The notes under the pieces: model-generated
Databases searched by the model: none
What the model saw: only the letters and a program-made list of their open reading frames with translations
Told to the model about the DNA's origin: nothing
In this document: positions 55,893 through 59,697 of the stretch, in pieces
How the letters are laid out: every line of letters begins with the position of its first letter
How positions within the stretch are numbered: the first letter of the stretch is position 1
From: a virus
Strand: one strand, 5' to 3'
Length of the DNA: 64,000 bases
Virus record (IMG/VR): IMGVR_UViG_3300028840_006907
Coordinates: 384,001-448,000 of that record
Made by a program: the position numbers and the translations under genes

Positions 55893-56729
55893 ATGTCTGA
55901 AAAATTTACATATTTCTGGAGTGGCCCATTTTCACAGTGGCACCCATCTCCTTTTGTTATAGAAGGTATTCAATATAACTGTGCTGAACAGTACATGATG
56001 GCTATGAAAGCTTTATTGTTTAATGATGCTGAAAGATATCAGATGATAATGAGTGCAGTGGATCCTTCTGATCAAAAGCGTTATGGAAGAAAAGTAGAAG
56101 GTTTTAATGAGGATGTATGGAAAAAATACGCTAAAAAGATTGTTTATGACGGAAGCATGGCTAAGTATACCCAGAATGAGGATCTTAAGAAATTATTATT
56201 GGCCACAAAAGGAACAACACTAGTTGAAGCTAGTCCTCATGACCGGTTATGGGGTATTGGACTTAGTGAGAATGATCCTTTGGCAAAAAGTAGAGCTACG
56301 TGGAAAGGTTTGAACTGGCTTGGAGAAATACTTACGGAAGTAAGAGATAAATTAGATATGGTTCAACGGAGAAATAATACTATGAACAATGAAAATAGGA
56401 GAAATAATACTATGAACAATGAAAATAAGAGAAATAATACTATGAACAATGAAAATATTGGAACTATTTATCTGAATATCCAGATGAAAAGTAAATTTGC
56501 TGATAAGATATTGGAACTTGCTCATAAAGATCTTCCTTCAGAGTATCAAATAGGAGGTATAACAAAACAACATCAAATAGTAAATGCTATGGGAAATATC
56601 CTTAGTGATTTAATGATTGAGGAAGATATAGTAAAAGCAAATGAATTTGGTGGTATAGAGGATCCTTCATTTGAACAGATATCAATAAATGGATTATATA
56701 TTGATTTATATAATCCTTCAAATAAATGA
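55893..56729 (+). CDS. NADAR (DUF1768/YbiA-like) domain protein with internal 10-aa x3 repeat and unknown C-terminal domain
   Basis: 'FYFWSGPFSQWHPSPFVIEGIQYNCAEQYMMAMKA...' and '...LVEASPHDRLWGIGL' match the NADAR signature; then RRNNTMNNEN x3; then about 90 aa of unassigned sequence. Confidence 0.65.
   Translation: MSEKFTYFWSGPFSQWHPSPFVIEGIQYNCAEQYMMAMKALLFNDAERYQMIMSAVDPSDQKRYGRKVEGFNEDVWKKYAKKIVYDGSMAKYTQNEDLKKLLLATKGTTLVEASPHDRLWGIGLSENDPLAKSRATWKGLNWLGEILTEVRDKLDMVQRRNNTMNNENRRNNTMNNENKRNNTMNNENIGTIYLNIQMKSKFADKILELAHKDLPSEYQIGGITKQHQIVNAMGNILSDLMIEEDIVKANEFGGIEDPSFEQISINGLYIDLYNPSNK
56370..56459 (+). repeat. three near-perfect tandem copies of a 30-bp unit (AGAAATAATACTATGAACAATGAAAATAGG), in-frame within the NADAR gene
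   Basis: Read directly from sequence; copies differ only at their last 2-3 nt. Confidence 0.85.
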
Positions 56730-56803
56730 AAAGATTATTGATCAATTAATAATCTTTTAAAACAAATAGATCCAAATAATATATAAAAGAGGAGTAAAGT
56801 ATT

Positions 56804-59245
56804 ATGGGTGGACGGAATTTTGATCAGAATAATTATCCTCCTGATTATTCCCATCAAGGGAATCAGGGTAATATGAGGGATATAGTTCTAAATCCTCATG
56901 AATATTGCTATATCCAAGATTTAAATACAGGGCTTATTAAAGTTATTGTAGGACCTAAAAAAGTAACTCTACAACCTACAGATAAAACAGTTACATATGA
57001 TGATAGTACTAGATCATTTAATATCTGTAAAGACATAAATGATGCAAAAAAGATTTTTCCTTATGCTGATGAAACTAGTTATATCATACTTCAAAACCCT
57101 GAACCAAATAATGCCTATCCGATAGAAAAGATGGAGAATGAATCAAAAGCACTTAATTATGGTCGTACCATAAATTTGGCAGGGCCTATTACTTTTGCTT
57201 TATGGCCTGGGCAGAAAGCTGAAGTGGTGAAAGGTCATCGATTAAGGAGTAATCAATATTTATTAGTAAGAGTTATTAACGATGAGGTAGCTAAAGAGAA
57301 TTTTAAAGAGACCGTTATTCAAGATACTGAAGGGAAAGCTAATACAAATTCTTTAAAAGATTTTAAACTGACAACGGGTGCCCTTAATATTATCAAAGGA
57401 ACCGAAATTAGTTTTTATATTCCTCCCACTGGTATTGAAGTTGTACCAAATGAAAGACATGAATATGTAAGAGAAGCATTGACTTTAGAGCGTCTTCGTT
57501 ATTGCATTTTAGTTGACGAAAATGGTAAAAAGCGATACATGAAAGGTCCTGATGTGGTCTTTCCTGAACCTACTGAACAATTTGTAGCAAAATCCGATGG
57601 TAGTCTTATTTATACTGCTATTGAATTAAATGATAACATGGGTATTTATGTTAAAACAGTGGATAAATATGAAGAGAGTGGTGAGAATTATAAAATAGGT
57701 GATGAATTGTTTATTACTGGAAAAGAACAGAAAATCTATTTTCCACGGGTAGAGCATGAAATAATAAAATATGGAGATAAGGTTATCCATTATGCTACAA
57801 CAATCCCTAAAGGAGAGGGTCTATATGTGCTCGATAAAAATACAGGTGAAGTAGAGACTAAAGTAGGTCCTAAAATGTTTCTTCCTAATCCTATTGAAGA
57901 AGTTATAGTAAAAAGGGTTTTGGAAGAAAAACAGGTGAGTCTTTGGTTTCCTGGTAATGCAGAAGCTCAAACTTATAATGAGACTTTGAGAAAAGAAAGA
58001 ACCAGATCGTTATCACAGAAAAAAGAATCCTATTCTGCTTATGAAACGATGGCTATTTCGACAGGTTTCTCAAGTGATGATATTGGGGGTGGTTTAGACC
58101 GCCCTACAGCCTATACAAAGCCCCGAACGATTAAGCTTGATACAAAGTATACCGGTGCGGTTGTAATTAATGTATGGCCTGGATACGCTGTTCAGGTTGT
58201 TGGTAAAACCGGTGTTCGTGAAGTAATTGTTGGACCAAAAGCTGTAATATTGGATTATGATCAGGTCTTGGAAGTTCTTACTATGTCTACGGGTAGACCT
58301 AAGAGTGATCATCATCCCGAAAAGACAGTCTATCTCAAAGTTAAGAATAATTCAGTAACTGATGAGATTCAGGCAAAGACCAGTAATCTGGTTGATGTCA
58401 GGATACAGCTCTCATATAAAGTGAATTTCGAAGGAGATCATTCTAAATGGTTTGATGTAGAAAATTATGTCAAGCTTCTCACTGATAATTGTCGAAGCAT
58501 TATTCGAAACCTTGTGAAAAAATATGGTATTGAGGAATTTAATGAAAAAGCTGAGGACATTCTTCGTGATTGTATTCTTGGAAAATCTTCAGACGAAGGT
58601 CGTAAAGGTAAAGTCTTTGAAGAAAATGGTATGAGAGTTTATGATCTTGACATTCTCAATGTGACTATAGGTGATGACTATATTAATCGGATGATTACAG
58701 AATCTCAACATAAGGCTGTCAGGACTGCTCTTGAATTAAAAGATATGGCAGAGACTTATCGGGAAGTTGAAGCTCGGAATGAAATGGAAAAGAAAACCAT
58801 TGAAAGTAATGAAGAAGCCGAATTGAAGCGGGATGAGAAACGCAGGAAGGATCTCGAAAGAAAGAGTATCATAAGTGAAATGGAAAATAAATCCAGGCTT
58901 AAAGAGCAGGATGATTTGAATAAAATAATGGATGAGGAATTGGGTCGAAAGAAATCAATTGCAGAATTAGAACAGGTTGTTTTGAAAGAGAAACTGGAAT
59001 TGGAAGTTTCTGCATTTACCAAAAAATTTGAAGCTATAAGTCCGCAATTAGTTCAGGCGATGATATCATTGGGTGACAAACAATTAACCAGAGCACTTGT
59101 TGAACATCTTCCTGAAGCTACTGGTACTACTGGATTCCTTTTTGGTAAAGGAGGAGCTGATGGATTGCTCTCACTTGTTGGAGGTACGAAATTGGAAGAG
59201 ACTCTCAAGAATGTTTTAACCCATAAAAATGGGGGCGGTAATTAA
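56804..59245 (+). CDS. major vault protein (MVP) homologue: vault repeats + shoulder domain + cap-helix coiled coil
   Basis: Colinear similarity to eukaryotic MVP as recalled from memory: N-terminus 'IVLNPHEYCYIQDLNTGLIKVIVGPKKV', shoulder 'VVINVWPGYAVQVVGKTGVREVIVGPKAVILDYDQVLEVLTMSTGRPKSDHH', cap-helix coiled coil and 'FEAISPQLVQAMISLG'; SD AAGAGGAG upstream. Confidence 0.75.
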   Translation: MGGRNFDQNNYPPDYSHQGNQGNMRDIVLNPHEYCYIQDLNTGLIKVIVGPKKVTLQPTDKTVTYDDSTRSFNICKDINDAKKIFPYADETSYIILQNPEPNNAYPIEKMENESKALNYGRTINLAGPITFALWPGQKAEVVKGHRLRSNQYLLVRVINDEVAKENFKETVIQDTEGKANTNSLKDFKLTTGALNIIKGTEISFYIPPTGIEVVPNERHEYVREALTLERLRYCILVDENGKKRYMKGPDVVFPEPTEQFVAKSDGSLIYTAIELNDNMGIYVKTVDKYEESGENYKIGDELFITGKEQKIYFPRVEHEIIKYGDKVIHYATTIPKGEGLYVLDKNTGEVETKVGPKMFLPNPIEEVIVKRVLEEKQVSLWFPGNAEAQTYNETLRKERTRSLSQKKESYSAYETMAISTGFSSDDIGGGLDRPTAYTKPRTIKLDTKYTGAVVINVWPGYAVQVVGKTGVREVIVGPKAVILDYDQVLEVLTMSTGRPKSDHHPEKTVYLKVKNNSVTDEIQAKTSNLVDVRIQLSYKVNFEGDHSKWFDVENYVKLLTDNCRSIIRNLVKKYGIEEFNEKAEDILRDCILGKSSDEGRKGKVFEENGMRVYDLDILNVTIGDDYINRMITESQHKAVRTALELKDMAETYREVEARNEMEKKTIESNEEAELKRDEKRRKDLERKSIISEMENKSRLKEQDDLNKIMDEELGRKKSIAELEQVVLKEKLELEVSAFTKKFEAISPQLVQAMISLGDKQLTRALVEHLPEATGTTGFLFGKGGADGLLSLVGGTKLEETLKNVLTHKNGGGN

Positions 59246-59697
59246 TGGATGAACCGGTATTGGATACAATTAAACATATTCAGAACGTCCAATACTACTT
59301 GAATCTTATGGTACGGGAACTCTTAGAGAGATCCCGAACCCATGATCAGAGTAAATTGGAAAGTCCCGAAAAAGAAGTCTTTGATAAATACACTCCTTTA
59401 CTTGCTGATAGTGTCTATGGGAGTGAGGAGTATTATCAGTTTTTAAAAGAAATAAAACCTGCCCTGGATCATCATTATAAGGAAAATTCGCACCATCCTG
59501 AGTTTTATAAAAACGGGATTAGTGGGATGTCTTTAATAGATCTAATGGAATTATTGGCTGATTGGGTCAGTGCTGCTCGTCGTCATAAAACAGGTGATAT
59601 ATTTAAATCTATTGAAATAAATCAGGAAAGATTTAAGTATACAAATGAATTAAAAAATATCTTTTTAAATACAATAAAGAGATTAGAACTTATTTAA
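59245..59697 (+). CDS. hypothetical protein with HD-like metal-binding motif (possible small phosphohydrolase)
   Basis: His...'THDQSK'...'DHHY'...'HHPE'...Asp spacing is reminiscent of HD-domain metal ligands; TAATG overlap with the MVP stop. Confidence 0.3.
   Translation: MDEPVLDTIKHIQNVQYYLNLMVRELLERSRTHDQSKLESPEKEVFDKYTPLLADSVYGSEEYYQFLKEIKPALDHHYKENSHHPEFYKNGISGMSLIDLMELLADWVSAARRHKTGDIFKSIEINQERFKYTNELKNIFLNTIKRLELI

Follow-up and report, generated by a model that had tools for sequence, protein, structure and literature searches.

We analysed a 64,000-nucleotide (nt) stretch of viral DNA, positions 384,001 to 448,000 of IMG/VR record IMGVR_UViG_3300028840_006907 (hereafter the window, with coordinates counted from its first letter), which looks like part of a huge phage. 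Directly upstream of a gene for a major vault protein (MVP) homologue, the window carries an ATG-started open reading frame (ORF) at 55893-56729 on the + strand. According to the ORF list, it encodes a protein of 278 amino acids (aa), comprised of a NADAR domain, a repeat linker and a small C-terminal domain. The phage NADAR is an ordinary member of a known family, and what is unusual is its fusion to a rare tail domain. The reading that we favour, and for which we consider the chances about even, is that this is an active N-glycosidase of the YbiA clade of NADARs that works in counter-defence or repair and has recently captured a small downstream ORF, with the MVP gene as a neighbour by co-location.

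The catalytic domain spans aa 1-157 (55893-56363, + strand) and is recognized by Pfam, TIGR02464 and PDB matches. The Pfam model NADAR (PF08719) matched aa 11-154 with an E-value of 1.5e-51 and 175 bits, against a cut-off of 35.1, and the match covered positions 11-162 of the 163 in the model; the same residues also matched PHROG 1017. An earlier note, made by a model from the letters of the window and their translations, had described a clear NADAR/YbiA-like signature at the N-terminus, and both the assignment and the motifs quoted for it held up. A phmmer search of the PDB sequences with the phage NADAR returned 8bau, the ADP-ribose-bound NADAR of Phytophthora nicotianae (E 1e-16), and 2b3w, the YbiA of E. 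coli (E 1.5e-7). With a profile of the NADAR alignment the two structures were found at 5e-36 and 1.6e-29, respectively, while no structure of a DarT1-linked NADAR in the PDB was matched at E ≤ 0.01.

The roles of individual residues were taken from Schuller et al. 2023 (PMC11543638), after correcting the chain numbering of 8bau, which is offset by two. Residues E43, K50, R79, W89, E125, D130 and W133 of the P. nicotianae enzyme correspond to E32, K39, R66, W76, E112, D117 and W120 of the phage protein. In an alignment of 20 sequences (the phage protein, 15 close relatives and 4 distant ones), these seven key residues were invariant or nearly so. R93 of the P. nicotianae NADAR is not kept: it aligns to an Ala, with Lys residues adjacent. 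The earlier note had made its reading depend on the presence of the catalytic residues, and, R93 excepted, the ADP-ribose-binding and catalytic set is in place. Because the key residues are kept and the evidence on subfamily agrees, the phage protein is probably a complete, active NADAR of the YbiA clade.

The evidence on subfamily is as follows. The position equivalent to E125 separates the NADAR subfamilies, with Glu in the YbiA family, Asp in the DarT-associated NADARs and His in the T4-type phage NADARs (PMC11543638); the phage NADAR has Glu (E112). It scored 159.4 bits with the NCBIfam model TIGR02464, for which the cut-off is 73.7, and 21.4 bits with the gp30.3 model PF08010, below the cut-off of 36. 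The NADAR domain begins at about residue 5, without an N-terminal extension. By diagnostic residue and model score, the phage NADAR is assigned to the YbiA/TIGR02464 clade, and neither to the type of the DarG1 antitoxin nor to that of T4 AdfN. It has the fold family, the active-site set and the diagnostic Glu in common with the E. coli YbiA/TIGR02464 "ribA/ribD-fused" clade and with the oomycete NADAR (PDB 8BAU), but its gene is that of a huge phage, and its repeat linker and 91-aa extra domain are seen in no other member. Like T4 AdfN (gp30.3), NADAR-Bas32 and NADAR-Bas60, it is a phage-borne, single-copy orphan NADAR, and by analogy its mode of action is likely to be similar. Unlike AdfN, it lies outside the gp30.3 lineage and has Glu where the T4 type has His. 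DarG1, the antitoxin of DarTG1, belongs to the same superfamily, and its E88 and K95 correspond to E32 and K39 of the phage protein. The phage NADAR differs from DarG1 in having Glu in place of the catalytic Asp (D171), in lacking the basic N-terminal beta-beta-alpha extension, and in having no adjoining DarT gene; it is flanked by a zinc-ribbon ORF and by MVP, and no ADP-ribosyltransferase is among its neighbours.

YbiA-type NADARs are a common clade in phages, where they are single-copy accessory enzymes. By tblastn, a NADAR of this type was present in 707 of 50,697 phage records, with one copy in each. The host genera of these 707 records include Staphylococcus, Listeria, Enterococcus, Bacillus and Xanthomonas, and their NADARs frequently bear the annotation YbiA-like or, mistakenly, GTP cyclohydrolase II. 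In the protein database, 3797 relatives of the phage NADAR were found. The best 120 were 53-71% identical to it, and about 85% of those were stand-alone proteins of 156-173 aa. Other members of the same clade carry unrelated N- or C-terminal add-ons; thus, modular additions are a habit of the NADAR family. Among the best-scoring relatives were two lancelet proteins (P0006 and P0007, from Branchiostoma hybrids; 353-376 aa, 53% identity), which fit the published distribution of NADARs, reaching cephalochordates and not vertebrates.

The C-terminal domain is an acidic module of 91 aa (aa 188-278; 56454-56726, + strand) with an isoelectric point (pI) of 4.6, for which two helices and short strands are predicted. 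The earlier note had described an unassigned domain of about 90 aa. The size is right and no Pfam or PHROG family claims the domain, but it is not an orphan: an exhaustive HMMER search with residues 188-278 against 1.84 billion representative proteins found two true homologues, and only two, of 90 and 81 aa (E 3.5e-13 and 1.1e-12; 44-45% identity). Two further matches of this search were discarded as spurious repeat proteins. Since 22 positions are invariant among the three sequences, the domain is a real, conserved small domain. Since both homologues are stand-alone ORFs, the fusion of NADAR with the C-terminal domain is unique to this phage.

Other searches with the C-terminal domain were negative. 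It had no match in Pfam, PHROG or the PDB, a word-indexed search found nothing, and pattern scans with the three-sequence profile found no relatives in IMG/VR or in the JGI contigs. A profile search of the PDB detected no sequence similarity to solved chains, PARP4 or mINT included. The AlphaFold2 (AF2) model of the full-length protein, built from the single sequence, was unusable, with a predicted local distance difference test (pLDDT) of 40.6. The model of the C-terminal domain, built from a three-row alignment, reached a pLDDT of 55.7, which is too poor for fold comparison; Foldseek with this model against BFVD and the PDB returned nothing at E ≤ 0.001, and we take the weaker matches to be meaningless. 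The contigs of the two homologues are 518 and 979 bp long, too short for context, and their flanking ORFs matched neither the window nor any MVP locus and included no NADAR and no MVP. A 20-aa "GELVM" fragment downstream of a stand-alone homologue was considered as an MVP N-terminus and was found not credible.

The two domains are joined by a basic, Asn-rich linker (aa ~159-188; pI 11.4) that is encoded by an in-frame tandem repeat of 3 x 30 nt (56368-56457, + strand), so that the fusion through a repeat linker reported by the earlier note is confirmed. Tandem Repeats Finder (TRF) described the repeat with a period of 30, 3.0 copies, 98% matches and a score of 173, and the three units encode RRNNTMNNEN, RRNNTMNNEN and KRNNTMNNEN. 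Beyond residue 155, no match was found in any of 35 NADAR loci from IMG/VR, and an exact-match search of the JGI contigs for the repeat junction found none. What sets this locus apart is that NADAR is joined, uniquely, to a small domain that is itself very rare, by way of a young repeat that keeps the reading frame. We propose the following history. The 91-aa domain would have begun as a separate small ORF directly downstream of the NADAR gene. The NADAR stop codon would then have been lost, and the initiation region of the small ORF, a 30-nt unit with a ribosome-binding site and a start codon, would have come to lie in frame between the two, where it is now triplicated. In support of this, a start at the ATG of the third repeat unit (56442) would give MNNEN-IGTIYL..., and the stand-alone homologues P0001 and P0002 begin at that point of the alignment. 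In the fused protein, the acidic domain would probably serve as a protein-binding adaptor.

As to function, the phage NADAR would most likely cut ADP-ribose off nucleobases of the phage's own DNA or RNA, with guanine and perhaps cytosine as the bases. Such cleavage would reverse the ADP-ribosylation caused by host toxins, such as DarT1-type or pierisin/ScARP/YarT-type transferases, and would thereby serve counter-defence or repair. Every NADAR subtype tested, YbiA and the T4 phage enzyme included, hydrolyses guanosine-ADP-ribose on DNA (PMC11125620). The NADAR subtypes tested also remove ADP-ribose from guanine on RNA (PMC11833690), and for enzymes of the YbiA type cytidine is a further base from which it is removed (PMC12945103). 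DarTG1 is countered by phage NADARs of three unrelated clades, T4 AdfN and two others (PMC11257639). The counter-defence role suggested by the earlier note is plausible, since published NADARs, phage ones included, de-ADP-ribosylate guanine and can defeat DarTG1, and the NADAR domain here looks catalytically complete; the qualification is that the protein is of the YbiA type and thus of neither the DarG1 nor the AdfN type. That phage NADARs can serve counter-defence is, in principle, already established.

Several points weigh against our reading. The phage NADAR is without the basic N-terminal extension that, in DarT1-linked NADARs, has been proposed to bind single-stranded DNA (PMC11543638). 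Neither E. coli YbiA nor the T4 NADAR, when expressed alone, protected cells against DarT1 (PMC11125620). The NCBI naming rule attached to TIGR02464 would name the domain a riboflavin-intermediate N-glycosidase, and a comparative study by the Aravind group makes the case that the substrates of most phage NADARs are soluble derivatives of ADP-ribose and not macromolecules. Activity is predicted from sequence, and no matching toxin can be named for the host. The fusion history is drawn from three sequences and from sequence logic, and the structure models that could bear on the C-terminal domain are the low-confidence ones described above.

Some of the same points lead to the strongest of the alternatives, namely that the protein is a small-molecule N-glycosidase. 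Its soluble substrates would then be ADP-ribose-derived immune signals or toxic by-products, or intermediates of NAD salvage or reactive intermediates of the riboflavin pathway, as for E. coli YbiA. The protein clears the cut-off of TIGR02464, whose name is "riboflavin biosynthesis intermediates N-glycosidase", it has the YbiA-type Glu, and a DNA-binding extension is absent. The comparative study cited above, a survey of NAD/ADP-ribose systems in viruses, proposes the breakdown of low-molecular-weight derivatives of ADP-ribose as the main task of NADAR, Macro, SLOG and Nudix proteins in phages, and genes for Nudix, ADP-ribosylglycohydrolase, isochorismatase, SLOG and cREC proteins are present in the same regions of MVP-bearing phages. 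On the other side, every NADAR so far tested, YbiA included, hydrolyses base-linked ADP-ribose on DNA and RNA, all phage NADARs tested in vivo counter DarTG1, and no riboflavin or NAD-synthesis gene was seen beside NADAR within the window. We regard a small-molecule substrate as possible but rather unlikely.

The repeat raises another alternative: the ORF might hold two functional genes, with the C-terminal domain made as a separate small protein from internal starts in the repeat, and with the fusion arising only recently, as a side effect of the repeat having expanded across a stop codon that was lost; such a fusion might be neutral or vary within the population. Each 30-nt unit contains a Shine-Dalgarno-like GGAG, AGGAG or AAGAG, followed after 10 nt by an in-frame ATG (56382, 56412 and 56442). 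This spacing is typical, and its likeness to the spacing at the genuine ribosome-binding sites of NADAR and MVP also speaks for the fusion history given above. The homologues of the domain are stand-alone ORFs only, and the 278-aa fusion protein is a singleton in its 90% cluster (P0005). The 98% identity of the repeat copies implies that the repeat is young.

The public assemblies bear on this alternative from both sides. The genes of the window recur on contigs from ENA (469 kb), JGI (388 kb) and Logan (two, of about 62 kb each), and the NADAR-MVP gene order and an identical 278-aa product recur in independent public assemblies (Logan, ENA, JGI and NCBI records). The JGI contig ends in the repeat at ~56441, while the ENA contig ends in it at ~56426 and restarts at ~56478, which suggests that the latter is a circular genome opened at the NADAR repeat. 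That two independent long assemblies end in the repeat suggests copy-number heterogeneity. The window and the two spanning Logan contigs, by contrast, agree on three copies. Moreover, as there is no in-frame stop codon, ribosomes that start at 55893 must yield the fusion, and the fused protein is necessarily made; since the repeat unit is a multiple of three, the frame is kept at any copy number. We hold two separate genes with an incidental fusion to be distinctly unlikely. In addition to the fusion, the internal starts may give rise to the small C-terminal domain by itself.

If our favoured reading, a counter-defence or repair enzyme with a captured tail domain, is right, it matters little in itself, because the reversal of DNA ADP-ribosylation by phage NADARs is already documented and the clade is common. 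YbiA-type (Glu) phage NADARs are the branch least characterized in vivo, and how such enzymes are targeted could conveniently be tested on a member from a huge phage that bears an adaptor-like extra domain.

The earlier note had placed the NADAR ORF immediately upstream of the MVP gene, and this is correct: the two are separated by a spacer of 74 nt (56730-56803), which contains the ribosome-binding site GAGGAG (56789-56794), 9 nt before the MVP ATG, and no terminator-like site. The MVP homologue itself has 813 aa (56804-59245, + strand) and matches MVP_shoulder (E 1.4e-23) and Vault_3 (E 3e-11). Its aa 450-704 match the rat and human MVP structures (residues ~455-729) with E ~3e-17. By sequence, it thus has the make-up of the MVP family, a shoulder domain and an MVP repeat followed by a long helical region.

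In the eukaryotic vault, PARP4 is docked via mINT to the MVP shell. The phage locus is alike in that an MVP homologue has the gene of an ADP-ribose enzyme as its neighbour and in that this enzyme bears a distinct module at its C-terminus. It differs in that PARP4 adds ADP-ribose, whereas NADAR removes it, and in that the phage linkage is not conserved in phages or bacteria. By analogy, the C-terminal domain could be a cargo tag that docks NADAR on or in a vault-like phage MVP shell, as mINT does for PARP4. Were this true, the phage would build a compartment with ADP-ribose-removing chemistry, mirroring the eukaryotic PARP4-vault pairing. The two genes are immediate same-strand neighbours with no terminator between them, and the acidic extra domain resembles a protein-binding module rather than a nucleic-acid binder. 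Co-orientation says little, since nearly the whole window is on the + strand, and the conservation of the linkage is what the following survey addressed.

We surveyed 160 MVP loci with about 6 kb on each side, collapsed at 80% MVP identity into 60 viral lineages (the window included) and 52 bacterial lineages. The ORF caller was crude, as it was greedy by length, with a GC3 filter at GC-rich loci, and lost at least one real gene (the SLOG gene of L009); the neighbourhood counts are therefore approximate. With an iterated NADAR profile, the distances from NADAR to MVP were -75 nt in the window, +354 nt in L179, +1322 nt in L181 and -3615 nt in L172; a NADAR in L002 lies at +6645 nt, on the opposite strand. 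Three of the 60 viral lineages thus have a NADAR within 1.5 kb of MVP, the window being one and the other two having theirs at different positions. No NADAR was found within about 6 kb of MVP in 55 of the 60 viral lineages, nor near MVP in any of the 52 bacterial lineages. The NADARs of the other four lineages are 24-30% identical to that of the window, those of L179 and L181 belonging to another subclade, and none has the C-terminal domain; the ones near MVP in other phages have 147 and 163 aa. At one NADAR per ~300-kb genome, 0.35-0.7 of the 59 other lineages are expected to have a NADAR within 1.5 kb by chance. The observed number was 2, which is close to chance (Poisson P(≥2) 0.05-0.16).

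We also compared Pfam families between 150 ORFs within 800 bp of MVP and 150 ORFs at 3-6 kb. The near set contained two NADARs and single YpsA and cREC genes, and the far set two NUDIX genes and one ADP-ribosylglycohydrolase. There is thus no enrichment of ADP-ribose-processing families near MVP (4/150 near versus 3/150 far; Fisher p = 1). Each set held 85 different families, none of which was a consistent neighbour of MVP. The bacterial MVP genes were still less constrained: their 136 neighbouring ORFs hit 200 families, and no neighbour was conserved. Just downstream of MVP, a few lineages have YpsA-SLOG, cREC, Macro or a "GGAKGAD" SLOG-like ORF, which, like the NADARs near MVP in L179 and L181, would favour a vault-associated enzyme. 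A lead that ADP-ribose-processing genes cluster at MVP as a specific linkage had come from such loci (LR756500 with SLOG-like and Macro genes, L005 with cREC, and L007-L010 with YpsA-SLOG); it was biased, because the seeds were picked from the near zone, and it was rejected by the near-versus-far counts. Vault proteins are unmentioned in two large surveys of phage NAD/ADP-ribose systems.

The C-terminal domain gave no sign of a link between NADAR and the vault either: it was not found beside MVP outside this phage, its two homologues were seen beside neither MVP nor NADAR on their short contigs, and it has no sequence similarity to any solved chain, that of PARP4 included. The two ideas of the earlier note that concern the vault, a functional tie between ADP-ribose chemistry and the vault gene and a vault-binding role for the C-terminal domain, accordingly find no support. 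A vault-docked NADAR is, on these counts, highly improbable. The adjacency of NADAR and MVP in the window is no evidence of functional pairing and looks like coincidence, and the parallel with PARP4 and the vault is not to be drawn from it, since no conserved partner gene exists across the 112 MVP lineages. Under our favoured reading, the proximity of MVP would come about because both genes lie in the variable accessory region that follows the replication genes. In the loci with ~6-kb flanks, the company of phage MVP genes tends to be accessory genes related to nucleotides, RNA repair and NAD. A weaker version of the vault idea is that phage MVP genes might be functionally part of the NAD/ADP-ribose/RNA-repair counter-defence islands in which they are often found.

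MVP homologues with 37-47% identity were found in 267 IMG/VR stretches, many of them on contigs of 100-500 kb (L001-L013, L131-L207). They were also found in 449 species-genome stretches of GTDB (L051-L130), from Myxococcota, Sericytochromatia, Riflebacteria, CPR and others, and in the phage records LR756500 (462 kb) and LR756501 (735 kb). The single literature account of viral MVPs found, a 2023 preprint, describes two gut phages and reports that homologues of PARP4 and TEP1 were looked for. MVP homologues are far commoner in large phages than these two suggest, and this is the more interesting thread to follow.

Some MVP loci have further genes of note. In LR756500, a gene for a 181-aa SLOG-like protein with the motif "SGGAKGAD" (L001:10466-11011) overlaps the MVP stop codon, and a gene for a Macro-domain protein (L001:11662-12441) lies 1.2 kb further downstream. 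In LR756501, the same SLOG-like gene (L002:14174-14797) is 3.8 kb downstream of MVP. The SLOG call was made from the motif only, and the SLOG-like proteins with this motif had no Pfam or NCBIfam match. Of seven IMG/VR lineages that are related (L174:4364-5896, L179:3863-5416, L167, L171, L175, L189 and L207), six encode a protein of about 510 aa with DUF2828 and DUF7788 (E 1e-27 to 6e-40) at 0.1-3 kb upstream of MVP, in the company of RNA-ligase, AAA_33/KTI12 kinase and metallophosphatase genes. As to a likeness of this protein to TEP1/Ro60 (TROVE/vWA), a profile search found no PDB relative, and the literature gave nothing useful.

Downstream of MVP, the window encodes a DUF5662 protein of 150 aa (59245-59697, + strand; Pfam E 6.2e-36), the start of which overlaps the MVP stop by 1 nt and which had no relative among solved structures. 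The next gene is HNH/endonuclease VII-like. DUF5662 genes are also present 2.7-4.7 kb from MVP in L132 (L132:756-1235) and L002 (L002:15094-15552).

The window as a whole has a G+C content of 33%, and almost every long ORF is on the + strand. No Rfam family was matched within it, and thus no vault-RNA-like element was detected. Upstream of the NADAR/MVP region lies a replication block that encodes an SNF2 helicase, DnaB, a primase and an intein-bearing DNA polymerase A. The polymerase gene (44090-47878) is split by a LAGLIDADG domain, probably that of the intein, according to precomputed Pfam matches of a public copy of the gene. A 529-aa AAA+ ATPase encoded at 51710-53299 is similar to the IetA component of IetAS, a defence system (PADLOC E 2.9e-24), and to PHROG 8638 (E 9e-82). 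Shortly before the NADAR gene, two tandem paralogues of 219 and 189 aa (54396-55055 and 55086-55655; PHROG 24725) have hydrophobic, signal-like N-terminal segments and share a long, near-identical core, QPVPFYEWSIELDAA...IYDARVRD.

Finally, a single N-terminal peptide, M-x-R-[YF]-[DQE]-I-[IAL]-x-x-K-K, opens seven otherwise unlike ORFs around the MVP locus. Six begin in the window, at 53302, 61622, 62131, 62427, 62846 and 63628 (all +), and the seventh is at L050:7842; MNRYDIILGKDP and MSRYDIIKGKKV are examples. About one chance match of the peptide is expected per whole window, and the window has none beyond these ORFs; none was seen at other MVP loci. Because the DNA upstream of these ORFs is not conserved and their codons differ synonymously, selection acts on the peptide itself, which may serve as a signal for targeting or as that of a propeptide.

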